This document shows, one piece after another, positions 14,108-57,023 of a stretch of DNA of 64,000 nucleotides. Both the position numbers and the translations under genes were made by a program. The stretch's first letter is position 1, and every line of letters starts with the position of its first letter. Origin of the DNA: an uncultured Clostridia bacterium (lineage in GTDB: Bacteria; Bacillota; Clostridia; TANB77; CAG-508); NCBI GenBank assembly GCA_949045875.1, contig CARPYP010000001.1, positions 57,166 through 121,165 on the forward strand, written 5' to 3'. Under the pieces are notes generated by a model, which was given only the letters and a program-made list of their open reading frames with translations, was not told where the DNA came from and made no database searches.

Positions 14108-14140
14108 TTTTATCTCCTTTTCATATTGATGTTTTTGTAG

Positions 14141-15189: not shown

Positions 15190-15259
15190 TTTCTATTGAA
15201 TTTATTATTAATTTATGATATCATACATTGACATAAAACTACGAGGAGGTATCGTAAAT
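15190..15259. promoter_or_regulatory. Duplicated divergent control block, copy 1 (accB RBS/start on the minus strand; candidate promoter and GGAGG RBS for the + strand small gene)
   Basis: cttgaatttattattaatttatgatat..aggaggt is near-identical to the block at 16887-16952 upstream of fabF. The minus-strand side reads aattcaaNagaaaggaaaNataaaaaATGGAA in both copies. Confidence 0.5.
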
Positions 15260-15565
15260 ATGAAATTAGGAAGTTTTTTTGAGAGTGCTATTTCACTTCG
15301 GAAAATGTATCACAAGCAATGGCTAAAAAAAGATGTAAATGCCTATCTAAAGATGGATATTTTGCAACAAATAGTCGACTCTGTTTTTACAAATGGAGAT
15401 TATCCTTTTCAATACTCAATTTCTTGCTCTTCTTCAAATGAGAAAATTATAGTTAAACTTGCTAAAGAAGTGTTTGAAGATTTGTTACTTACAGTAATCT
15501 TTGCATACTCCTATGATGGATGTTGCATATTTCAATCTATAACTCCATTTTTCTACACACTTTGA
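15260..15565 (+). CDS. Hypothetical ~101-aa protein encoded antisense within the fab operon (paralog A)
   Basis: GGAGGT 8 nt upstream of ATG. Own hairpin+T-run terminator. Shares motifs with paralog B (KMDILQQIVDSVFTNGDYP vs KIHIISQIVEEIFEEGSLP). Confidence 0.55.
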   Translation: MKLGSFFESAISLRKMYHKQWLKKDVNAYLKMDILQQIVDSVFTNGDYPFQYSISCSSSNEKIIVKLAKEVFEDLLLTVIFAYSYDGCCIFQSITPFFYTL

Positions 15566-15634: not shown

Positions 15635-16873
15635 CTATTCTTCATAATTTCTTATAATGATACTGGCATTATGTCCACCAAATCCCAACGAATTTGACAT
15701 TACAACATTTAATTTTTCTTTTATTGGTTCATTTGGTACTATGTCTAAATCACATTCTTCGTCTTTTTCTTTATAGTTTATTGTTGGTGGTACTATTCCA
15801 TTTTCTATTGCTTTTACACAGATTACTGCTTCTACTCCTCCTGCTGCTCCTAATAAATGCCCAATATTTCCTTTTGTTGAACTTACTTTTACTTTTTTAC
15901 TTGCTTCTCCTAATGCTGTTTTTATTGCTAGTGTTTCTGTAGAATCATTTAAATGTGTTGATGTTCCATGTGCATTTATATAATCAATATCTTCTGGTTT
16001 GATACCAGCATCTTCTATTGCTCTTATCATTGCTTTTGCTCCACCTTCTCCATTTGGGTTAGGTGATGTTATGTGATATGCGTCTGTTGTGCTTCCAAAT
16101 CCGATTAGTTCTGCATATATTTTTGCTCCTCTTTTTTTAGCATGTTCTAATTCTTCAAGTACTACTATTCCTGCACCTTCTCCCATTACAAATCCGCTTC
16201 TTTCTTTGTCGAATGGAATACTTGCTCTGTTTTTATCTTCTGATGTACACAATGCTTTCATGTTTTCAAATCCTGCTATTCCAATAGAACAGATTGAGGC
16301 TTCTGTTCCTCCTGCTATTATTACATCTTCATATCCTTGTTTTATAGTTTTATATGCTTCTCCTATTGCATGTGTTGATGAAGCACATGCAGTTACTATT
16401 GAGATGGATTCTCCTTTGAAACCAAATTCTATTGCAATATTTCCTGCTGGCATGTTTGCTATTGCCATTGGAATGAACATTGGAGATACTCTATTGTTTC
16501 CTTTTACATAGTTTGTTTCACATTGTTCTTGTATTGTTTTTAATCCTGCTATTCCTGAACTTACAAAAACTCCCACTCTTTCATAATTTGTATTTTCTTC
16601 TGTGATACCACTATTTTTTACTGCTTCTCTTGCTGCTATTACTGCAAATTGTGATGATTTATCAAATCTTTTTGCTTGTTTTTGCTCAAAGTATTCTAAA
16701 GGGTCATATTCTTTTATTTCTCCTGCTAGTTTTGTCTTGAAATTGTCTGTATCAAATAATGTGATTTTGTCAATACCACATTCTTTGTTTTCTATTCCAT
16801 TCCATGTTTCATTAGAATCTTTTCCTATTGGAGTTATTGCTCCAAGTCCTGTAATTACAACTCTTTTTTCCAT
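15635..16873 (-). CDS. fabF: 3-oxoacyl-[ACP] synthase II
   Basis: 412 aa KAS II. Active-site region SIVTACASSTHAIGEA and HGTSTHLND. Confidence 0.9.
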   Translation of the reverse strand: MEKRVVITGLGAITPIGKDSNETWNGIENKECGIDKITLFDTDNFKTKLAGEIKEYDPLEYFEQKQAKRFDKSSQFAVIAAREAVKNSGITEENTNYERVGVFVSSGIAGLKTIQEQCETNYVKGNNRVSPMFIPMAIANMPAGNIAIEFGFKGESISIVTACASSTHAIGEAYKTIKQGYEDVIIAGGTEASICSIGIAGFENMKALCTSEDKNRASIPFDKERSGFVMGEGAGIVVLEELEHAKKRGAKIYAELIGFGSTTDAYHITSPNPNGEGGAKAMIRAIEDAGIKPEDIDYINAHGTSTHLNDSTETLAIKTALGEASKKVKVSSTKGNIGHLLGAAGGVEAVICVKAIENGIVPPTINYKEKDEECDLDIVPNEPIKEKLNVVMSNSLGFGGHNASIIIRNYEE

Positions 16874-16886
16874 TTTTTTATTTTCC

Positions 16887-16952
16887 TTTCTCTTGAATTT
16901 ATTTTTAATTTATGATATATTAATAAAAAACCACAAGGAGGTATTTGTAAGT
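16887..16952. promoter_or_regulatory. Duplicated divergent control block, copy 2 (fabF RBS/start on the minus strand; promoter and RBS of + strand paralog B)
   Basis: cttgaatttatttttaatttatgatat...caaggaggt. See copy 1. Confidence 0.5.
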
Positions 16953-17255
16953 ATGACAAATTGGGAAAACTTTGTTACCAACGCTTGGGTTCTACGGAAT
17001 CATTATGAAAATGATAATGTTCCAAACTCAAAGTTAAAAATTCATATCATTTCTCAAATAGTTGAGGAGATCTTTGAAGAAGGTAGTCTGCCTTCTCATT
17101 TAGTAATTGATGACGAATTTAAAGACGTCAGTGCCTTATTGGATGCTTCTACATCTGTACTAAAAGATTTAAATCTTGAAATGTACAAACTATTAATATC
17201 TGCTAATTGTGATGTAGAAAAATCAATAAGTACAGTTTTATTTGAATTAAGTTAG
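16953..17255 (+). CDS. Hypothetical ~100-aa protein encoded antisense within the fab operon (paralog B)
   Basis: GGAGGT RBS. The ORF track lists a longer 16602..17255 frame, but the RBS-proximal ATG is at 16953. Own terminator follows. Confidence 0.55.
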   Translation: MTNWENFVTNAWVLRNHYENDNVPNSKLKIHIISQIVEEIFEEGSLPSHLVIDDEFKDVSALLDASTSVLKDLNLEMYKLLISANCDVEKSISTVLFELS

Positions 17256-17308: not shown

Positions 17309-18076
17309 TTACATAATCATTCCACCATCTACATTAATAACTTGCCCTGTTATGTATGAACTCTCCTCTGAGACTAAGAATTTTACAACATTTGCAACAT
17401 CCTCTGTTTTGCCCATTCTTTTTAGAGGAATAGATTTTGCAATTTCTTCTTTTATTTCGTCTTTTAATACATCTGTCATTCCAGTTTCTATAAATCCTGG
17501 TGCTACTGCATTTACTAATATTCCTCTTGATGCCACCTCTTTTGCTAAACTTTTTGTAAATCCTATCATCCCTGCTTTTGACGCTGAATAGTTTGTTTGA
17601 CCAGCATTTCCTGCTACTCCTACAACAGATGATATATTTATTATTCTTCCTGAACGTGCTTTCATCATATGACTAATTACATTTTTAGTTACATTAAATG
17701 TTCCTACTAAGTTAGTATCTATTACGTCTTCAAAGTCTTCTTTTTTCATTCTCATTAATAGCGTATCTTTTGTAATTCCTGCATTATTTACTAATACATC
17801 TATTTTTCCATATTCTTCTATGATTTCTTTTACAAATTTTTCACAGTCTTCAAAATTTGATACATCTCCTTGTACTGTTAAACATTTTACCCCTTTTTCT
17901 TCTATTTGTTTTTTTGTTTCTTTTAATGCATCATTTTCTGTTCTATAATTTATTGCTATATCATAGCCATTTTGAGCTAATGTTAAGGCTATTTGTTTTC
18001 CTATGCCTCTTGTGGCTCCTGTAATTAATGCGGTTTTGTTCATTTCTTCCCTCCATTTTATTATTTTATAGTACAA
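17309..18076 (-). CDS. fabG: 3-oxoacyl-[ACP] reductase
   Basis: 255 aa SDR. TGATRGIGK NAD(P)-binding motif, catalytic YSASKAG. Confidence 0.9.
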   Translation of the reverse strand: MYYKIIKWREEMNKTALITGATRGIGKQIALTLAQNGYDIAINYRTENDALKETKKQIEEKGVKCLTVQGDVSNFEDCEKFVKEIIEEYGKIDVLVNNAGITKDTLLMRMKKEDFEDVIDTNLVGTFNVTKNVISHMMKARSGRIINISSVVGVAGNAGQTNYSASKAGMIGFTKSLAKEVASRGILVNAVAPGFIETGMTDVLKDEIKEEIAKSIPLKRMGKTEDVANVVKFLVSEESSYITGQVINVDGGMIM

Positions 18077-18084
18077 TATAGAAA

Positions 18085-18258
18085 TAATTAATAATTAATC
18101 AATTCGAAAAATTATTTAAATGAAATTGAATTAGAAAATGTTAGAAATTAATTTATAGGGAATCTCGAGCGTGATGAGAGGGCGCTGTAAATTAATTTAT
18201 TACATTTTATATGAAATTGAATTGTATAATTTTGAGAATTTATTAATTCATTAATTAT
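18085..18258. mobile_element. MITE-like repeat element, degenerate copy 1 (between fabD and fabG)
   Basis: ~165 nt alignable to the element at 39686-39861. Same GC-rich core GGGAATCTCGAGCGTGATGAGAGGGCGCTG flanked by AT-rich inverted arms. Termini are degenerate versions of the 21-bp TIR. Confidence 0.55.
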
Positions 18259-18259
18259 T

Positions 18260-19189
18260 TTATAGTAAATTCATAGTATTTTTTAAACTCTCTATGTTAT
18301 TAATATTCAAAATTTTTATTTCTTTATCTGTTGGTGTTCTTTTTACAAAGCCTGATAGTGCTTTACCTGGTCCTATTTCTATAAATGTGTCTATTCCATT
18401 TTCTAGCATATTTTGTATTGTTTTTGAAAATCTTACTGGATTTATTATATGTTTTGCCAAAATGTCTTTTACATCATCTGTATCTTTATATATTTCTCCA
18501 TCTATGTTTTTTATAACTTGTGCTTTAAAATTGTTTATTGTTATTTTTTCTAGTTCTTTTCTTAAAGCGTGTGAACTTTCTATTAATTTTTCGGTATGAA
18601 ATGGACCTGCTGTTTTTAATGGTATTACTTTTTTGGCTCCCATTTCTTTTGCTATATTTCCTGCTTCTTCTATTCCTTCTTTTTCCCCTGATATTGCAAC
18701 TTGCCCTACACAGTTATAATTTGCTGGTACTACAAATCCTGATTTTACTTTTTTACAGACATCTTCTACTTGTTCATCTGTTAGACCCATTATTGCTGAC
18801 ATTTGCCAATTTCCTTTTGGTAGAAGATTTTGCATGTATTCTCCCCTTTTTTGAACAAGTTTAACTCCTTCTTCAAATGATATTGCTCCTGAATTTATTA
18901 TTGCTGTATATTCTCCAAGACTTAGTCCGGCTGACATTTCTGCTACTATATTATTGCTTTTTAGTATTTCTAAAATTGCTAAGCTCATTGTTAATATTGC
19001 AAGTTGTGTGTATTTTGTTTCATTTAGTTTTTCTTCTGGTCCTTCAAATGATATTTGGGCAATGTCTATGCCTGTCAGTTCTTGTACTTTGTTATATATT
19101 TTTTTTACTGCTTCATATTCTTCATATATGTCTTTTCCCATTCCTACATTCTGAGAGCCTTGACCTGGGAATAAAAATCCGATTTTCAT
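18260..19189 (-). CDS. fabD: Malonyl CoA-ACP transacylase
   Basis: 309 aa. FLFPGQGSQNVGMG and active-site GLSLGEY. Confidence 0.9.
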   Translation of the reverse strand: MKIGFLFPGQGSQNVGMGKDIYEEYEAVKKIYNKVQELTGIDIAQISFEGPEEKLNETKYTQLAILTMSLAILEILKSNNIVAEMSAGLSLGEYTAIINSGAISFEEGVKLVQKRGEYMQNLLPKGNWQMSAIMGLTDEQVEDVCKKVKSGFVVPANYNCVGQVAISGEKEGIEEAGNIAKEMGAKKVIPLKTAGPFHTEKLIESSHALRKELEKITINNFKAQVIKNIDGEIYKDTDDVKDILAKHIINPVRFSKTIQNMLENGIDTFIEIGPGKALSGFVKRTPTDKEIKILNINNIESLKNTMNLL

Positions 19190-39251: not shown

Positions 39252-39623
39252 TTATTCATCTTTATTTTTAGGTTTCGCGGGTAATATTTCTTTTAAAATT
39301 TTGTCAATTCTTTCTCCATATTCTATTGAATCATCTAATACAAATATTATTTCTGGTGTTATTCTTAGGTTTATCCTTTTTGCAACTTCTGTTCTGACAA
39401 ATCCTGATGATTTTTTTAGAGCTGCTAAGGTTTCTTTTGTGTTTTTTGAGTTTAATATACTAACATATATTTGGGCATATTTTAAGTCTGGTGTGATTTT
39501 TGCTTTTGTTACACTTATTAACCCTGTTATGTTAGGATTTTTTAGGTCATATGATATCACATTGCTTATTTCTTTTTTTAATTCTTCGTCTATACGACCT
39601 AGTCTGTTTGAATTTTTATTCAT
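39252..39623 (-). CDS. rbfA: Ribosome-binding factor A
   Basis: 123 aa. RLGRIDEELKKEISNVI N-terminus. Positioned after infB as in the canonical operon. Confidence 0.85.
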   Translation of the reverse strand: MNKNSNRLGRIDEELKKEISNVISYDLKNPNITGLISVTKAKITPDLKYAQIYVSILNSKNTKETLAALKKSSGFVRTEVAKRINLRITPEIIFVLDDSIEYGERIDKILKEILPAKPKNKDE

Positions 39624-39685
39624 GTTTGCTTCCTTTCGTTATAGTTAAATTTTATTATATTTTGTAAATATAGACTCACCTATAC

Positions 39686-39861
39686 TACATTCATAATTAA
39701 TAAATTTGAGAAATTATTTGAGTGAAATTGAGGTTAGAAATGTTATAATTTCAGTTATAGGGAATCTCGAGCCTGTCGAGAGGGCGCTGTAATTGAAATT
39801 ATTACATTCTCTCCGAAATTGAGAGGGATAGAATTTCGAGAATTTATTAATTATGAATGTA
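39686..39861. mobile_element. MITE-like 176-bp element with perfect 21-bp terminal inverted repeats (TACATTCATAATTAATAAATT)
   Basis: Left TIR 39686-39706 and right TIR 39841-39861 are exact reverse complements. Internal GC core GGGAATCTCGAGCCTGTCGAGAGGGCGCTG is flanked by complementary arms (ataatttcagttata / tgtaattgaaattat). The promoter-like TTAGAAATGTTATAAT lies inside. Second copy at 18085-18258. Confidence 0.7.
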
Positions 39862-39870
39862 TTGTATTTT

Positions 39871-39900
39871 TGGGCAGACACAGGGCCTGCCCCTACATTA
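39871..39900. repeat. GC-hairpin family member (GGGCAGACACAGGGCCTGCCCCTACATT)
   Basis: Same stem and tail as 62681-62766, but without the loop insert. Confidence 0.5.
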
Positions 39901-39904
39901 CCTA

Positions 39905-39985
39905 TTTATTAAGACCTTTCTTAATTTCTTCCATTTTGAAAATTTCTAATGTATCTCCTTATAGATACATTAAATTTTTCTATAA
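39905..39985. repeat. Diverged (~80% identity) duplicate of the last ~80 nt of infB
   Basis: aagacctttcttaatttcttccattttgaaaatttctaatgtatctccttatagatacattaaatttttctat aligns to infB 3' end at 40019-40100 (aagacctttcttagtctcaaccatagtaaaaatttctaatgtatctccttctatgatgtcattgtatttttctat). A 23-nt stretch is identical. Confidence 0.7.
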
Positions 39986-40017
39986 TCATTCTAGTTAAAT
40001 AAGCTCATTTCATTCGC

Positions 40018-43000
40018 TCATTTACCAAGACCTTTCTTAGTCTCAACCATAGTAAAAATTTCTAATGTATCTCCTTCTATGATGTCATTGTATTTTTCTA
40101 TTTGTAGTCCGCATTCATATCCTTCTGTTACTTCTTTTACGTCGTCTTTGAATCTTTTTAGTGATTCTAGTTTTCCTTCATGTATTACTACATTGTCTCT
40201 TATTACTCTTACTCCTGCATGACGTTCTATTTTTCCACTTGTTACATAACATCCTGCAATTGTTCCTAATGAACTTACTTTGAATATTTGACGGATTTCT
40301 GCATTTCCGATTACTTTTTCTTCGAATTTTGGATCTAACATTCCTGTCATCGCATCTTTTACGTCTTCAATTGCATTGTATATTACTGAATATGTCTTTA
40401 TTTCTATTTCTTCTTTTTCTGCTACTATTTTTGCTAGTGGCTCTGGTCTTACATTAAATGCTATGATAATTGCATGTGCAACTTTTGCTAATGTAACATC
40501 TGATTCTGTTACTCCTCCTACATTCGCATGTATGACTTTTACTTTTACTTCTTCATTAGATAACTTTTCTAAACTTGATTGCACTGCTTCTACTGAACCT
40601 TGTAAGTCTGCTTTTACAATTAAGTTTAATTCTTTTAGCTTTCCTTTTTCAATTTGGCTAAATAAGTCGTTTAATGATAATTTTGAAATTGAATTTATTG
40701 ATTTTTCTCTTGCTTGACGTTTTCTCTTTTCTATTAAGTGTTTTGCTGTTTTTTCATCATCTACTTCATAGAAAATTTCTCCTGCTTCTGGTACCTCTGT
40801 TAATCCTAAAACTTCTACTGGCGTTGATGGTCCTGCTTTCTTTACTTTTTTTCCATATTCATTTGTCATTGCTCTAATTTTACCAATTACTGAACCAACT
40901 ACTATCATATCTCCTGTATCTAATGTACCACGTTGTACAAGCATTGTTGCTAGCGGTCCTCTAGTTTTGTCAAGTCTTGCTTCTATTACAGTACCTTTAG
41001 ATTGTTTATTAGGATTTGCTTTAAGTTCTTGCATATCTGCTACTAATAATACCATTTCTAGTAATCCATCTATGTTAATTCTTTTCTTAGCTGAAATTTC
41101 AACAAATACGGTATTTCCTCCCCATTCTTCTGGTACTAATTCATATTTCATTAATTCTTCTTTTACTTTTTGTGGATTTGCACCTTCTACATCAATTTTA
41201 TTAATTGCAACTATTATAGGAATTCCTGCTGATTTTGCATGGTTTATAGCTTCAACAGTTTGAGGCATTACTCCATCGTTTGCTGCAACTACTAATATTG
41301 CAATGTCTGTTACTTGTGCTCCTCTTGCTCTCATTCCTGTAAATGCTTCATGCCCTGGTGTATCTAAAAATGTTATTTCTCTACTATTAACAACTACTTT
41401 ATAAGCACCTATTTTTTGAGTTATTCCACCTGCTTCTCCTTCTATTACATTAGTTTGTCTAATAGCGTCTAGCAGTGATGTTTTACCATGGTCTACATGC
41501 CCCATAACTACTATAACTGGTGGACGTGTTATCATTTCTTCTGGGTTATCTTCTGTATCATCAAATAGTATTTCTTCATCTGTTATTATTTCTTTTTTCT
41601 TTGCTGTTATTCCAAATTCTCCTGCTATTAAGAATGCTGTGTCAAAATCAATATCATTATTTATTGTTGCCATTATTCCATAATTTAATAATTTTTTTAT
41701 AACGTCTCCTGATGTTTTTTTCATTTCTACTGCTAAATCTTTTACTGTTATTGATTCTGGTATTGTTATTTCTGTTAGCTCAAAGATTTTTTGCTTGTTT
41801 CTTTCTTCTTGATTACTATTTTTCTTTTTGTTTTTCTTGTCTCTTCTCTTACTTAAATCATAATAATCTAACATTCCACCTTCTTGGTCATTAAACATGT
41901 TTGATAATTTATTAGTTTGTTTCAAATCTTTTAATTTTCCACTGTCGAAATTTTCATTTCCATTGCCTTTTCTTGATTTGGTATTCTTTTTAGCTTTTGA
42001 TTCATCTATTTTAGTAGTTTTTTGTTTGTTTTTATTATATTCTCTAGTAATTTCTTTTTCTCCAAAGTCTGCTTCCATGATGTTTTTTATATTTTTTTCA
42101 ATTCCTTTTTCATCAAGTGGTCTATTGTTTCTAAATCCATTATTATTGTTGTTCCTATTATAATTATTATTTCTATTGAAACCATTATTTTGATTTCTAT
42201 TTCCATTATTGTTTCCATTTCGATCAAAATTTCTATTGTTGTTTCTGTTTCCATAATTTTGATTATTGTTATTTCTATCTTGGTAATTGTTGTTTCTATT
42301 AAATCCGTTATTTTGGTTTCTTTTTTCATTGTTGTTTCTATCAAAATTTCTATTGTTTCTGTTGGCATAATTTTTACTGTTATTTCTATCAAAATTTCTT
42401 TCATTGTTTATGTTTTTATGAGTATTTTCAGTGTTTTTCTTTGTTATAGTTTCTTTATGTTCTTCTGAAACTTTTGGGGGTTCTATTTCTTTCTTATCTT
42501 CTTTAATTTCAGGTATTGGTTTGATTTCTTCTTTTCTTTCTACTTCTACTTTTTCTTTTACTTTTTCTTCTTCTTTTACTTCTTCTTTTTGTTTAACTGG
42601 TTCTTCTTTTTTCTTTTTGTTTAATCCAAAAAGTTCACTTGCAGTCATAGGTTTTGTTGGTTTATTTCTATATACAATGTTATAATTATTATTTTTTCTT
42701 TCTACAACTTTTCCAGCTTCTTTCTTACTTTTTTCAACAGTAGCATTATTTTCTTTATTACTTTCCTCTTCTTCTGATATTATTACTGCTCTCCTGATAA
42801 TTACTGGTGCATTTTCATCTTGTTTCTTTTCTTGTGTATTTGATTTTTTTTCTTTATTATCCATACTTTGACTTTTCATTTCCTTACTAAATTTATTTTT
42901 AATCTTTTTTACCATTTGCTCATCAATCGTGCTTAAATGGTTTTTAACATTTGCTCCTAATTCATTTGCTATTGATACAATTTCTTTACTTGCTACTCCT

Positions 43001-43038
43001 AATTGTTTTGCTAATTCATGTATTTTTATTTTTTCCAT
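40018..43038 (-). CDS. infB: Translation initiation factor IF-2 with long Asn/Arg-rich low-complexity N-terminal region
   Basis: GTP-binding [26 protein letters not shown]. The ORF track starts at 43077, but [15 protein letters not shown] with a GGGGGTGA RBS at 43038 fits IF2 N-termini. An in-frame tandem repeat region lies at ~42100-42420. Confidence 0.9.
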
Positions 43039-43384
43039 ATAGCAAATCACCCCCAATTTCTTTAATAAGCTTTTCAATTTCTTCTGATAAGCTCTTCGAT
43101 TTTATTCCTATAATTGCTTTATTGCTTTTTCCTATAGTTTGGCTTATTTCATCAATATCCCCAAATTCTAATATTGGTACATTGCTTTTGTCGCAAATGT
43201 TTTTGATATTTTTCTTGGTTCTTTCCGACGCATTTTCTGCAACAATTACTAATTTTACTCTATGTTTTTCAATATCTTCAATTGTTGCATCATTTCCGCA
43301 AACTATTTTTCCTGCTTTAGCAGATATTCCAAGCATACCTAGTACTTTTCTTTTCTGATATGCACTCTTGTCTTCTATATTCAA
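43016..43384 (-). CDS. ylxQ: L7Ae-family ribosomal-like protein YlxQ
   Basis: 122 aa (possibly a shorter internal start). [13 protein letters not shown]...[11 protein letters not shown], typical of YlxQ between nusA and infB. Confidence 0.7.
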
Positions 43385-52560: not shown

Positions 52561-52655
52561 ATCATAATTCCCTTCTTTAATGTATAAATTAATTTTTCTT
52601 AACTTATACGCAAAGTATATCATATATTTATCTTCTTTACAATATAATTTTTAGT

Positions 52656-53717
52656 ATGAAAAGAAGAAGTTTTAAATTTATGTTGTTTTCTGTAAAGAAA
52701 AATTTATTATCAATTATTTTTATTTTATTTACAATATCACTTGTGGTATTTTCAAAGTCTAACTTCTCTGCTGCAAAAACAGGTTTATCGTTATGGGCAA
52801 ATTCCGTTGTTCCTTCACTTTTTCCTTTTTTTATTGCAACAGAGTTATTAAGTTATACTAATGTAATTTCAATGCTTGGAACTCGTCTAAATTTTTTAAT
52901 GAGACCACTATTTAATGTTCCTGGAGAAGGTTCCTTTCCTTTTATTATGGGTATAATTAGTGGATACCCAACAGGTGCAAAAATTGTTTCTAAGTTTAAA
53001 AATGATGGTATTTGCACTTCCATTGAGGCTGAACGTCTTTTAGCTTTTACTAATAATTCAGGTCCTCTTTTTATTATTGGAACTGTTGGTATATCCCTTT
53101 TTGGTGATTTACAAGTTGGTATATTGCTTTTGTCTACACATATATTGGCATGCATTACAGTTGGTATTATTTTTAGATTTTGGAAATATGATAAATCACA
53201 TAAGGGTTCATCAAAATATGTATCTAAAGGTTCTAGTAGTTCATCTGCTAATATAAGTAGTTTAGGCAAAATATTAGGTGCGAGTATTACAAGTGCTACT
53301 CACACTGTAGTTCTTATTGGTGGTTTTGTTGTACTTTTTAGCGTAATTATTTCTATTGTTAATAGTAGTGGAGTTTTAGATTTACTTTGCAAAATTATTA
53401 ATCCATTTTTAAGAATCCTAAATATAGATTCTAGGTTTTCCTCTGGGCTTATTAGTGGTATTATTGAACTTACAAATGGCGTGAGTATTATATCTTCTAT
53501 TTCAGTAAAGGCAATTTCTACTAATATTATATTTTGTGCATTTCTACTTGGTTTTGGCGGTATTTCTGTAGTTTTACAGGTATTTAGCATAGTTTCAGAG
53601 GCTGGTATTTCAATTAAACCATATATTTGGGGTAAGTTATTGCAGGGAGTTTTTGCTGCATTATATACTTACTTAATTATAAGTAATTTTCAAATTTTTA
53701 ATTTGGATTTAATTTAA
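52656..53717 (+). CDS. ylbJ: YlbJ-like sporulation integral membrane protein (nucleoside-recognition/Gate domain)
   Basis: 353 aa polytopic membrane protein. Conserved PLFNVPGEGSFPFIMGIISGYPTGAK and NNSGPLFIIGTV segments. Confidence 0.6.
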   Translation: MKRRSFKFMLFSVKKNLLSIIFILFTISLVVFSKSNFSAAKTGLSLWANSVVPSLFPFFIATELLSYTNVISMLGTRLNFLMRPLFNVPGEGSFPFIMGIISGYPTGAKIVSKFKNDGICTSIEAERLLAFTNNSGPLFIIGTVGISLFGDLQVGILLLSTHILACITVGIIFRFWKYDKSHKGSSKYVSKGSSSSSANISSLGKILGASITSATHTVVLIGGFVVLFSVIISIVNSSGVLDLLCKIINPFLRILNIDSRFSSGLISGIIELTNGVSIISSISVKAISTNIIFCAFLLGFGGISVVLQVFSIVSEAGISIKPYIWGKLLQGVFAALYTYLIISNFQIFNLDLI

Positions 53718-54070
53718 TATCTTCTATATCTAGTATTACATCCACATGATGAATTATTATCTAAGTTCTGAGTGTTTAATGTAGTATTAATAGTATTTAC
53801 AGTTGCACAGTTTGTTGTATGATTACAATTATTATCTCTTATAATTTTTGATATTAGTCTTGTGATTATTGCTGATATAAATGCAAGGATTGTATATAGA
53901 ATGGCAAATATTAGGAAATTGGCATCGAAAAACGCAAATGTAACAATTAAAAATATAGCAAAGAATATAGCTGCTACTTTTATGGGGCAATGTAATATAG
54001 TTTCAAATACACTTGCTAGTATAATGGTTGCAATTGGTAATGCAAATAATAACAATAATAAATTAGTCAT
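53714..54070 (-). CDS. Hypothetical small membrane protein (3 TM) with Asn/Thr/Cys-rich C-terminal tail
   Basis: 118 aa. AAAGGAGA RBS 8 nt upstream of ATG. Tail ...DNNCNHTTNCATVNTINTTLNTQNLDNNSSCGCNTRYRRY. Confidence 0.5.
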   Translation of the reverse strand: MTNLLLLLFALPIATIILASVFETILHCPIKVAAIFFAIFLIVTFAFFDANFLIFAILYTILAFISAIITRLISKIIRDNNCNHTTNCATVNTINTTLNTQNLDNNSSCGCNTRYRRY

Positions 54071-54237
54071 ATATATGTATCTCCTTTATTTTTCAATTTT
54101 ATATATACTATTCATTTTATAAAAATTTGTTACAAAGAAAATTTTTATGTTTTTTGTACCTATAACAAACAGCGATTGCATACGCAACCGCCGTTTGAAA
54201 TTTTTAGGATTTAAATCTATTTTGGTTGGAATATCTT

Positions 54238-54447
54238 TTAAAGGATTTCACATTTTATTATCTCCTTTAAACGAAAGGCTCCTCCATACTTTTTCCTCAA
54301 TTGTTCTAAGTACTGTTTCTTCTGCTTCTCACAATGAATTTCATGTTGGAGTATTTCGCTCAAATGCTTAGTTTCTCCATACATTTCTTGCAGTTCTCTT
54401 AAATACCTTTCCTTCTGTGTCCGGTTTAGAACCTCTCCATTTTTCAT
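54238..54447 (-). CDS. Hypothetical 69-aa helical protein
   Basis: AAGGAG RBS 10 nt upstream. Hairpin (gcggttgcgtatgcaatcgc) downstream. The antisense + ORF 54147..54371 lacks an RBS. Confidence 0.45.
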   Translation of the reverse strand: MKNGEVLNRTQKERYLRELQEMYGETKHLSEILQHEIHCEKQKKQYLEQLRKKYGGAFRLKEIIKCEIL

Positions 54448-54707
54448 GTTAATCTACTCCTTTTTTTATTTTTTATTGCTTTGTGACCTTGCCACTTGTA
54501 TTTTATATTGTAGCAAAATTATAGTGAAATGTCAGTTTTATGTTAAGTTCTTGATAATATAATTTGACTTTTTAATGGAAAATTGTTAATTTTTGATTTT
54601 TTGTAATGTATTCCCAGTAATAAATTTTAAAATTTGCTAACAATACCATTAATATGATTTGTGATTTCATATTGAAAAATTTTACTTTAGAAAGGAATAT
54701 TGTTATT

Positions 54708-56033
54708 ATGAAAAGAAAATTTTTATTTATTTTATTGTTAGCTTTTGCTTTTCTTACATTTTTTACTCTTACAGATAATGTAAAAGCTGCTGAACCATCT
54801 TATGGAGATGATGGTAATGGATATATTACTCTTGGTTCTCAAAAATGTTTCTTCGCAAATGGTACACATATTAGTATAGAAGAAAGAGATGATGGAGCTC
54901 AAGGAGCTAAAATTGTATGGCTTAATGGAACTGAGACTAAAACTGTAAATGTTCCTAGTGATATTAACGTATTTGGTGGCGCTCATCATGATGCTACTAA
55001 TTACCCAAGTACTAAAATTACTATGAATGGCGGAACTGTTAAAAATGTATTTGGTGGTGGCCTTCACCAAAGTTCTGTAACAAATGCAGAGGTTATTATT
55101 AATGGTGGAAAAGTAACTGGTAGTGTAACTGGTGGTGGTGCAAATATATTTGCTAATAGTGATTCTGGTTCACATACAGGCTCAAGTTTCGAAACAGTAG
55201 TTACAAATGCAACTACTACTATAAATAATGGTAGTTCCTATAACGTTTTTGGTGGTGGTGAAGGATATTCTACTACAAATAATGTATCACTTAATATTAA
55301 TGGTGGTACTATGAGTTATGTTACAGCTGGTGGTTCTAATGGAACTACTGGTAACGCAAATGTTAAAATTACAAGTGGTCAAATTGCTTTATTACAGAGT
55401 GTTAACCGTGGACAGGTTTCTTCAGCAGACATGCGTGTACTAGGTGGTACTATTGATAAACTTTATGTAGGTGGAGAAACAGAAGATGCTAATGTTACTG
55501 GTTCTATTGGTTCTGTAGGTTTAGATATCACTGGTGGTTCTGTTGTTAATAATTTATACATTGGTAAAAGTGGTGGACAATTAATTGGAACAAATGGAAA
55601 TAATACTAAAGTTGATGTAGATATTTATCTTGGAGCAACTGTAAATATGCCAAATCCAGGTGAATTTCAAAATTTTCCAGTTACACAATATGTTTTTGTA
55701 ACTATAGATGATAATAGATTTGAATTAGAAGCTGGAAAAACTTTAGCTGATATTCCTGAGTTACCAGCTATAAAAAATCTAGCAGGTAAAGAGTTCGTTC
55801 ATTTCGTTAAGGCTGATACTGGTGAAGTTTTTGAGGAATCTACTCCTGTTAATTCTAATTTAGATTTAAAGGCAGTCTATAAAGCTGTAGAAAAACCAGC
55901 TCCTGAAGTTGTACCAGATAAAAAAGATGAAACTCCAAAAACAGGCGAAAATAATTTATTTAATATTATAGCTATAACTTCATTAATTTTCTCATTAGTA
56001 GGATTTGTAATCGCATGCAAAATAAAAAGATAA
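54708..56033 (+). CDS. Cell-wall-anchored beta-helix surface protein with sortase-B-type sorting signal (TPKTG)
   Basis: Signal peptide MKRKFLFILLLAFAFLTFFTLTDNVKA. Repeated G-rich rungs (NGGTVKNVFGGG, NGGKVTGSVTGGG, NGGTMSYVTAGGSNG). C-terminal PKTGE + hydrophobic segment + KIKR. The ORF track start at 54654 is likely too far upstream. Confidence 0.7.
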   Translation: MKRKFLFILLLAFAFLTFFTLTDNVKAAEPSYGDDGNGYITLGSQKCFFANGTHISIEERDDGAQGAKIVWLNGTETKTVNVPSDINVFGGAHHDATNYPSTKITMNGGTVKNVFGGGLHQSSVTNAEVIINGGKVTGSVTGGGANIFANSDSGSHTGSSFETVVTNATTTINNGSSYNVFGGGEGYSTTNNVSLNINGGTMSYVTAGGSNGTTGNANVKITSGQIALLQSVNRGQVSSADMRVLGGTIDKLYVGGETEDANVTGSIGSVGLDITGGSVVNNLYIGKSGGQLIGTNGNNTKVDVDIYLGATVNMPNPGEFQNFPVTQYVFVTIDDNRFELEAGKTLADIPELPAIKNLAGKEFVHFVKADTGEVFEESTPVNSNLDLKAVYKAVEKPAPEVVPDKKDETPKTGENNLFNIIAITSLIFSLVGFVIACKIKR

Positions 56034-56095
56034 CCTATAAATGATTTGATATTCAATAGCATAAATTTAAAGTATAACTATTTTAAATAGTAGGG

Positions 56096-56120
56096 CGGAC
56101 TTTTCCGTCCGCCCATTAAT
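56096..56120. repeat. GC-hairpin family member in reverse orientation (TAGTAGGGCGGAC-tttt-CCGTCCGCCC)
   Basis: Reverse complement reads GGGCGGAC..GTCCGCCCTACTA, matching the family. May double as terminator of the surface-protein gene. Confidence 0.45.
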
Positions 56121-56183
56121 TGCATTTGATGAATTTCATTAAAATATTTTTCACCACATTTTATAAAAAGGAGTAAAATAAAA

Positions 56184-56999
56184 ATGAAGGCTAATAAAAG
56201 AAATAATTTACTTATTATAAAATATATCATTATAATAATATTTTCTATATTAATTCTTATATCTTTTATATTTTTAATAACAACTAAGTATATAGAATAT
56301 AAAGAAAAAAAGGATTATGAGTCTTTGGCTGATTACATTGTTAATAATGAAAATCAAGGTATTTTTATGGATAGTTCACAGGCTAAAGCTAAAGATAAAG
56401 ATAAAGCAGAGAAAATTTTAAAATTGGAAGAACTAAATAATCAATATAAAGATGTTGTAGCATGGTTAGAAATACCTGGTACTAGTATTAATTATCCAGT
56501 TGTACAAGCTCAGGATAATGTTTATTATTTAGACCATACATATAAGAAAACATATTCATCTAGAGGGTCTATTTTTTTGGATAAAGATGTTAGTTTTGAA
56601 AAACCAAGTGATAATTTTTTAATTTATGGCCATAGAAGCAAAAGTGGTACAATGTTTGAAGGATTATTAGAATATGAGAATGAAAGTTTTTATCAAGAGC
56701 ATAAAATAATAAATTTCTCTACATTACAAGAGGATTCTGAGTATGAAATTTTGGCAGTTTTTCGTTCAAGAGTGTACAATAAATCTGACACAAATGTATT
56801 TAGATATTATTTTTTTATAAATGCTGAAAATGAAAGTGAATATAATAATTTTGTATTAAATTCTAAAAAGGCTTCGCTTTATGATACTGGCGTTAATGCT
56901 TCTTATGGTGAACAACTATTAACTCTTTCTACATGTGCATATCATACAGAAGATGGACGATTTGTAATTGTTGCAAAGAAAAAAACAAATATTAATTAA
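56184..56999 (+). CDS. srtB: Class B sortase
   Basis: 271 aa. N-terminal TM anchor. YGHRSKSG (His), LSTC catalytic Cys, downstream Arg. Immediately follows its candidate substrate. Confidence 0.8.
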   Translation: MKANKRNNLLIIKYIIIIIFSILILISFIFLITTKYIEYKEKKDYESLADYIVNNENQGIFMDSSQAKAKDKDKAEKILKLEELNNQYKDVVAWLEIPGTSINYPVVQAQDNVYYLDHTYKKTYSSRGSIFLDKDVSFEKPSDNFLIYGHRSKSGTMFEGLLEYENESFYQEHKIINFSTLQEDSEYEILAVFRSRVYNKSDTNVFRYYFFINAENESEYNNFVLNSKKASLYDTGVNASYGEQLLTLSTCAYHTEDGRFVIVAKKKTNIN

Positions 57000-57023
57000 T
57001 ATTAATACTTGTTTTTTTATTTA

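Follow-up and report, generated by a model that had tools for sequence, protein, structure and literature searches.

A putative new family of low-copy, structured intergenic hairpin repeats in AT-rich uncultured gut Clostridia

The 64,000-nucleotide stretch of uncultured Clostridia DNA presented above (the window) carries two copies, A and B, of a non-coding hairpin element that we propose belongs to a new family of intergenic repeats. Copy A, a complete hairpin element, occupies 39681-39866 with its folding strand on the + strand, antisense to both of its neighbours: infB, encoding IF-2, lies upstream by transcription (open reading frame (ORF) at 40018-43077, -; Pfam IF2_N, GTP_EFTU and IF-2 on an identical locus) and rbfA lies downstream (ORF at 39252-39623, -; Pfam RBFA), its ATG being 57 nt from the hairpin end at 39681 and 62 nt from the 21-nt repeat that begins at 39686. 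This repeat, 39686-39706 (TACATTCATAATTAATAAATT), is the exact reverse complement of 39841-39861, as an earlier reading made from the letters of the stretch by themselves (hereafter the sequence-only reading) had stated in describing perfect 21-bp terminal inverted repeats (TIRs). The inverted repeat of copy A reaches 35 nt at 86% complementarity (39681-39715 with 39832-39866), and a second, inner arm pair surrounds the GC-rich centre. The motif GAAATTGAG stands in the 5′ arm at 39724-39732, where it is conserved in all copies, and again in the 3′ arm at 39815-39823 as the partner of the first, which bears out the direct repeats reported inside the element. An invariant apical module, placed from invariant alignment columns and the table of pairs, lies at 39755-39792 (+). 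The RNA folding energy of copy A is -69 kcal/mol for the + strand (z = -9.3 against shuffles) and -47.7 kcal/mol for the - strand.

Copy B, also complete, lies at 18082-18260 (+) between fabD (18260-19189, -; Pfam Acyl_transf_1 on a homologue at least 90% identical) upstream and fabG (17309-18043, -; Pfam adh_short on an orthologue) downstream. It directly adjoins the stop codon of fabD and leaves 38 nt to the fabG ATG, the likely start at 18043 with GGAGGG ahead of it, and its apical module, placed from the core pattern and the alignment, is at 18153-18190 (+). The two copies are 83% identical over ~230 nt, their 30-nt cores differ at 3 positions, which fall in the apical loop and in the stem next to it, and the window has two occurrences of the core pattern where 0.00 are expected. 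A covariance model made from 19 copies matches copy A at 39691-39861 with 154.6 bits and copy B at 18089-18257 with 154.4 bits. The second copy seen in the fab operon by the sequence-only reading is thus real, but its termini are not degenerate as had been thought, since copy B has its own complementary outer helix, AAATAATTAAT...ATTAATTATTT (18082-18260), which is common to other loci. Copy B is identical in L009, the reference metagenome-assembled genome (MAG) of the same species. Both copies sit in a background of 27.8% GC in which GC and AT skew are strongly negative on the + strand (GC skew -0.2) and nearly all genes lie on the - strand.

The element is not confined to the window. A scan of species-representative genomes with the core pattern returns 18 true copies, spread over 6 gut MAGs of uncultured Clostridia (mouse, rabbit and others), together with 2 chance matches in unrelated GC-rich genomes, and a metagenome scan adds 2 further copies, while viral contigs, plasmids and phages hold no match to the pattern. 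In total there are ~20 copies, which occupy 10 independent loci and come from at least 7 genomes of related uncultured Clostridia. With 98.6% nucleotide identity over 7.5 kb, the window itself is of the same species as MAG MGBC105370, a species that carries at least 5 copies. The sequence-only reading had held that a genome with just the two copies, and with no matching IS ends, would weaken the case for a mobile element; more than two exist, so that objection falls, and the number is low, ~3-6 per genome. The covariance model, run on the related sequence, finds no additional full-length copy and no copy with a variant core, all full-length copies having been retrieved by the exact core pattern; it does pick up a 70-nt mini-hairpin made of the outer arms, described below. 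A match to a known RNA family would have replaced the repeat interpretation, and Rfam covariance models searched against the 64-kb window give none at the gathering threshold; relaxing the cut-off to E <= 10 brings in nothing but chance matches to microRNA hairpins, with scores well under that threshold. A literature search with the core sequence yielded only unrelated primer coincidences.

All copies are intergenic. Nine of the 10 loci lie between co-directional genes: infB and rbfA, fabD and fabG, gatC and gatA, pheS and pheT, addA and pth, a beta-CASP RNase gene and the GH15 gene after it, a site upstream of a 307-aa gene, a site downstream of ftsH, and, in a rabbit MAG, the site upstream of genes of an RCC1/Big_2 surface-protein family. 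The tenth lies between the convergent genes polC and traX. The distance to the upstream stop is often no more than 10 nt, with 35-60 nt left to the next start, and the flanking genes share no common functional theme. In the rabbit MAG, Lapin-008 bin82 (L004, L010, L013, L014, L017), 5-6 copies each stand ~45 nt upstream of paralogous genes for probable surface proteins, which are ~800-1000 aa long and have RCC1 repeats and Big_2 domains; L004 holds two tandem copies 493 bp apart, and these rabbit copies appear to have been duplicated along with the 5′ region of the gene.

Every copy forms one continuous irregular hairpin of ~175-185 nt, built of three long AT-rich helical segments with conserved tandem G.A mismatches between them and an invariant GC-rich apex. 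The 38-nt apical module consists of TTATAGGGAATCTCGA, a variable loop of 5-7 nt and GAGAGGGCGCTGTAA; its lower helix contains an invariant U.G pair and is followed by a purine-rich asymmetric internal loop (GGAA / GGGCG) and then by a helix of 5-6 bp, UCUCGA/UCGAGA. The identity of this apical loop as a K-turn or sarcin-ricin motif was weighed by eye, was not convincing, and is not claimed. In the arms there are three conserved sites at which 5′-GA-3′ stands opposite 5′-GA-3′, two of them flanking a self-complementary AAUU helix. In the predicted structure the AAUU within GAAATTGAG of the 5′ arm pairs with the AAUU of the 3′ arm, with tandem G.A on both sides, which accounts for the direct repeats mentioned above. 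No open frame is read on either strand, so a small ORF or a type I toxin is excluded.

The sequence-only reading had pointed out that the arms of copies A and B differ in a manner that preserves base pairs, and this observation extends to the family. Across 16 distinct sequences 96.7% of the cells of the pair table are paired, and 16 of 52 pairs have changed on both sides; none of 500 shuffles matches this, and structures slid by 1-3 columns are 35-51% paired. As covariation exceeds these controls, the hairpin is selected as a hairpin. Indeed, selection on a hairpin in RNA or single-stranded DNA (ssDNA), which had been proposed from the two copies, is strongly supported by the covariation, the strand-specific G.U pairs and the conserved tandem G.A mismatches.

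This anatomy bears directly on the nature of the supposed transposon ends. In copy A the 5′ half of the outermost helix (39686-39706, +) is locus-specific in sequence and complementary in every copy, and its 3′ half (39841-39861, +) is given by the inverted-repeat comparison. Throughout the family the outermost 10-20 bp vary by locus (TACATTC.., AAATAATT.., GTGCG.., GCAATAT.., TTTAGG..) and are always self-complementary, with conservation rising towards the centre. Termini that vary in this way and still pair behave as the closing helix of a hairpin rather than as sites bound by a transposase; the "TIRs" are the outermost helix of the hairpin and not transposon ends.

The sequence-only reading had taken the element for one of the miniature inverted-repeat transposable elements (MITEs), that is, a deletion derivative of an insertion sequence (IS) whose TIRs are bound by a transposase supplied in trans and which moves by cut-and-paste with a target-site duplication. 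Several properties fit this description: the element is small (~175 nt), lacks an ORF, is multi-copy and dispersed over 10 loci, has inverted ends and differs in presence among close relatives, so that the wider claim of a dispersed non-coding repeat holds good. Copy B is furthermore flanked by a 5-bp direct repeat, TATAG, at 18077-18081 and 18261-18265. The other nine loci, however, show no such duplication, and it is the centre rather than the termini that is invariant. As the sequence-only reading said, no transposase lies beside either copy, and 10 window ORFs of unclear function have no transposase or recombinase domain in Pfam; a cognate IS with matching ends, which that reading would have searched for, turned up neither in ~340 kb of related sequence nor in phage, plasmid and viral collections, and no solo arms stand beside any ORF in the same ~340 kb. 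Nor would MITE status by itself predict conservation of orthologues far above neutral, and paralogues only 69-95% identical give no sign of a recent burst. With its ends variable and its duplication inconsistent, the MITE interpretation is not supported as first stated, and we now regard a classical MITE as very unlikely.

The two strands of the hairpin are not equivalent. The strand reading GGGAATCTC, the + strand of the element, is 10-25 kcal/mol more stable than its complement in 20 of 20 copies, and the consensus structure has an energy of -40.8 kcal/mol on + against -20.4 on -. On this strand G.U cells number 40 against 7 for A.C, unpaired G 312 against 71 for C, and at five pairs the switch between Watson-Crick states passes through G.U. 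The + strand background is C- and T-rich, so the signal of a G-rich strand is not one of mutational skew. These comparisons show the GGGAATCTC strand to be the probable selected single-stranded form. At all nine co-directional loci this folding strand is antisense to the flanking genes (two-sided probability ~0.004 under equal odds), so the operon mRNA holds the weaker complement, which is broken by C.A and U.C mismatches. For the family as a whole, the copies thus compared show that selection acts on the folding of the GGGAATCTC strand, antisense to the host genes.

This asymmetry raises the question of whether the element serves the mRNA in which its complement is found. According to such a reading it would be a cis-acting element of the sense strand, an intercistronic hairpin that sets the stability, processing or translation of the flanking cistrons, for which REP at malE-malF and ERIC in Yersinia are the cases to compare. 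The position between co-directional genes, close to the upstream stop (often under 10 nt) and 35-60 nt from the next start, the orientation fixed relative to transcription and the certainty of co-transcription all suit this role. The sense strand also still folds, at -30 to -56 kcal/mol (z = -8.6), and its C-rich loops (UUCCC, CCCUCUC) would, judged by their sequence, resemble anti-Shine-Dalgarno motifs. Against this, the sense strand is consistently the poorer folder, with C.A and U.C mismatches where the other strand has G.U and G.A, the element is present between genes for subunits of equal dosage (pheS/pheT, gatC/gatA), and a functional theme common to the flanking genes is missing. We consider a sense-strand mRNA element quite unlikely.

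A host non-coding RNA made from the opposite strand, antisense to the operons or as a 3′ untranslated region (3′UTR) at the convergent polC><traX locus, is in keeping with the strand signals, every one of which favours the antisense strand. The purine-rich loops and the three conserved tandem G.A sites are of the same tenor, and at polC><traX, whichever way the element lies, one of the two genes has the folding strand as its sense strand. Were it so, the family would be a new multi-copy class of structured RNA, antisense to essential operons or in the 3′UTR at convergent ends; it might act through the invariant apical module together with complementarity to the copies in operon mRNAs, or through protein binding by the apical module, and, in a genome so rich in AT, a possible role would be that of a polar insulator or of a regulator acting on the transcripts of both strands, antisense and sense. 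The difficulty lies in expression. The element carries no conserved promoter or terminator, so an external antisense promoter would be required at each of the ten loci. The extended -10 TGTTATAAT noticed in the sequence-only reading is present in copy A, but it is at chance level (promoter-like matches 1 against 4.2 expected) and is not conserved, the same position reading TGTTAGAAAT, TGTTTTAAAT and TGTTAAGAAT in other copies. Outward promoters are likewise chance-level matches without conservation. An intrinsic terminator, which would be a GC-rich stem running straight into a U tract, is not found at copy A or copy B. Strong purifying selection in situ, described below, speaks for a host RNA, and the dispensability of copies in several lineages speaks against one. 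We therefore treat the antisense RNA, and with it the new RNA class, as an unlikely alternative.

How an element of this kind is retained is seen by comparing orthologous loci. At infB-rbfA the element differs by ~1% between the window and L006, where fourfold sites of the flanking genes differ by 14-27%; at pheS-pheT it differs by ~4.6% between L011 and L018, with fourfold-site divergence of 21%; and at polC-traX L016 differs from L002 and L007 by 0-1%, with fourfold-site divergence of 12-17%. The immediate flanking spacer is more diverged than the element. Concerted evolution is ruled out as the cause of this conservation, since orthologues are 98-100% identical and paralogues of the same genome 69-95%, and a recent import by recombination is ruled out as the immediate flanks have already diverged. 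These comparisons show that the element, where retained, is under strong purifying selection and passes by vertical descent.

Retention is not universal. The infB-rbfA spacer lacks the element in relatives at 86% and 92% RbfA identity. For the relative at 96% RbfA identity, one assembly has a remnant whose core has been deleted between AATAATTT direct repeats (L051), and in another a loss between GAAAGG repeats has removed both the element and its neighbours. In the gatC-gatA spacer of a 93% relative (L042-L044, ~2300-2330) there stands, where L003 has a full element, only a perfect 25-nt palindrome, TAGATAATTAAT-T-ATTAATTATCTA, which is the outer helix and whose edges fall on ATTAAT direct repeats; in more distant relatives the gatC-gatA spacers are short and unrelated. 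Upstream of pheS in L011 (6367-6436) a 70-nt mini-hairpin keeps ~30 nt of each outer arm and lacks the central 109 positions, core included, and is thus a deletion derivative. Finally, a relative with FabD at least 90% identical (L037) has an unrelated 64-nt fabD-fabG spacer without the element, which holds a REP-like hairpin. No clean empty site was found at fabD-fabG, gatC-gatA or infB-rbfA, the element-free sites in relatives being deletions or unrelated spacers. The losses are shown by these remnants to be deletions of the kind stimulated by inverted repeats, in which direct repeats are also involved. They resemble the nearly precise excision of Tn10/Tn5, which likewise consists of deletions between short direct repeats within inverted arms that leave a small palindrome, as represented here by the L042 palindrome, the L051 core deletion and the L011 mini-hairpin; the resemblance covers the mode of loss only, and not that of spread. 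Since the element is absent from the spacers of close relatives, the insertions are recent on the scale of this genus-level clade, and the distribution of copies shows a family that has spread by duplicative insertion into short intergenic spacers within a narrow clade of uncultured gut Clostridia of 27% GC.

One locus departs from the fixed orientation. At polC><traX the element stands in either orientation depending on the genome, the whole of it being inverted between genomes with 99% identical PolC and with two base differences inside. This, and the 5-6 copies upstream of the paralogous RCC1/Big_2 surface-protein genes of the rabbit MAG, would be in keeping with an inverton, in which the inverted repeats are the sites of an invertase and flipping alters a downstream gene such as those for the surface proteins. 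The inversion is one between species at a single locus, however, and 8 independent assemblies of the window's infB-rbfA spacer are identical in orientation and sequence, so that flipping is not frequent there. The interior is itself palindromic, with the result that flipping would alter only ~30 nt, and it contains no conserved promoter. Most loci lie within housekeeping operons, and no recombinase gene is adjacent. An inverton is, in our judgement, exceedingly improbable.

The family is best placed by comparison with repeats of known kind. The nearest are the ERIC elements, or IRUs: imperfect palindromes of 100-200 bp in intergenic transcribed regions, often in operons, with a conserved centre, which are conserved across species beyond the neighbouring DNA and differ in the locations of their copies between related species. 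No transposase is known for them. The present family shares the imperfect palindrome, the intergenic transcribed siting, the conserved centre, the compensatory change and conservation beyond neutral, and differs in sequence and phylum (Clostridia), in a much lower copy number, in the invariant GC-rich apex of an AT-rich hairpin and in a folding strand that is antisense at every co-directional locus. The bcr1 repeat of the Bacillus cereus group, ~150 nt long, is likewise an intergenic hairpin repeat of Firmicutes, stable and with compensatory changes, but it has defined TIRs and a TTTAT target-site duplication, whereas here the termini vary and no duplication is consistent. Correia elements (CREE/NEMIS) and RUP/BOX are similar as small palindromic intergenic repeats that are co-transcribed with their neighbours and may form long RNA hairpins; the conserved 26-bp TIRs, TA duplication and functional promoter boxes of Correia are not seen here. 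In IS200/IS605 the active strand is on the lagging-strand template, the opposite bias to that of the folding strand of our element, which by gene orientation and GC skew is on the leading-strand template and is also the template of transcription. A PATE derived from IS200/IS605 is accordingly ruled out, as the element is one continuous hairpin and not a set of separate subterminal hairpins and its folding strand is the leading-strand template.

With REP/REPIN-RAYT systems the likeness lies in a hairpin repeat recognised as a single strand, in G.T pairs on one strand and in long vertical persistence. GTAG-tagged REPs and the RAYT, or TIR-associated Y1, transposases have been described (PMC3733652), in a survey that does not mention Firmicutes. 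Our element differs in lacking the GTAG tag, its core starting TATAGGG, and in being one long AT-rich hairpin with a single core instead of two inverted REPs. A tblastn search for a RAYT or Y1 transposase gave no match in ~340 kb of related sequence, a weak test made with an IS200 TnpA query. A second repeat family does occur in the window in the form of short GC-rich hairpins tagged GTAGGGGC, for example GTAGGGGCAGGCCCTGTGTCTGCCC, with 7 occurrences against 0.16 expected. They lie at 39872-39896 (-), which adjoins copy A, and at 14137, 14210, 27798, 27981, 32540 and 48536; six of the seven are on the gene-sense strand, and 14137 (+) and 14210 (-) form an inverted pair that is like a REPIN/BIME doublet. 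Such hairpins are also found in L006, L003 and L013 and in the fabD-fabG spacer of L037 that is without the 176-nt element.

We lean towards a reading in which the elements form a new, lineage-restricted and low-copy family of non-coding structured intergenic repeats, similar in kind to ERIC, bcr1 and REPINs and selected at the level of the single strand. Recognition would be of the element as one folded strand, present as antisense-strand RNA or as an intermediate of ssDNA, much as Y1 enzymes recognise REPs and REPINs, and inside operons only the orientation that spares the sense transcript the hairpin at full strength would be tolerated.

Some of our observations weigh against this proposal. 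The enzyme that would spread the element was not found in ~340 kb of related sequence, and a purely selfish element would hardly be expected to be under such strong purifying selection at orthologous loci. The folding strand, being the template of both the leading strand and transcription, is the one least exposed as ssDNA in place, which argues against a role for ssDNA in situ. No conserved promoter was found on either strand at copies A and B, a scan for intrinsic terminators gave none at either copy, and across all loci neither strand shows a consistent run of T after the hairpin. Copies have disappeared from several lineages with no evident cost to them. Retrieval by the exact pattern makes the core's apparent invariance in part a sampling effect, though the covariance model found no copy with a variant core. 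There is thus a tension in the data: conservation in place suggests a role at the level of the host, yet the folding strand has no promoter encoded in its sequence and copies have been discarded by several lineages.

A number of other features of the window are recorded here in their own right. The N-terminal part of the IF-2 encoded by infB (40018-43077) contains a long low-complexity insert rich in asparagine, which fits the very low GC content. Between copy A and infB, ~39897-40005 is an insertion of ~109 nt relative to the orthologous spacer of L006, common to L050 and L052; within it lie a small hairpin (AATGTATCTATAAGGAGATACATT) and a stretch that nearly duplicates the final infB codons (AAGAAAGGTCTTAATAAATAG vs AAGAAAGGTCTTGGTAAATGA). 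At ~52600-57000 a short stretch of + strand genes comprises a Gate-domain nucleoside transporter, a sortase and a 459-aa protein without assignment, and GC and AT skew are weaker there than elsewhere in the window, where genes are on the - strand. ORFs at 15215-15565 (+) and 16602-17255 (+), in the spacers after fabF and fabG, are candidate genes only; they end in similar C-terminal text (NYENDNVPNSKLK... / EEIFEEGSLPSHL...), and at the corresponding position in L037 a gene of 100 aa is called.

Bacterial genomes commonly contain small palindromic repeats, whose function and means of spread are mostly unsettled. The family presented here is previously undescribed, although structured intergenic hairpin repeats are of a kind already known, and it provides a good test case: copies are few, their orthologous, paralogous, deleted and flipped states can be separated, purifying selection is strong and a clear strand asymmetry runs opposite to the host genes. 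With these properties it can be tested directly in which form such repeats are under selection: RNA, ssDNA or DNA sites. Should the antisense strand not be expressed, the element would be another tolerated hairpin repeat, of use mainly as a strain marker; if it is expressed, it would represent an undescribed structured RNA in uncultured gut Clostridia.

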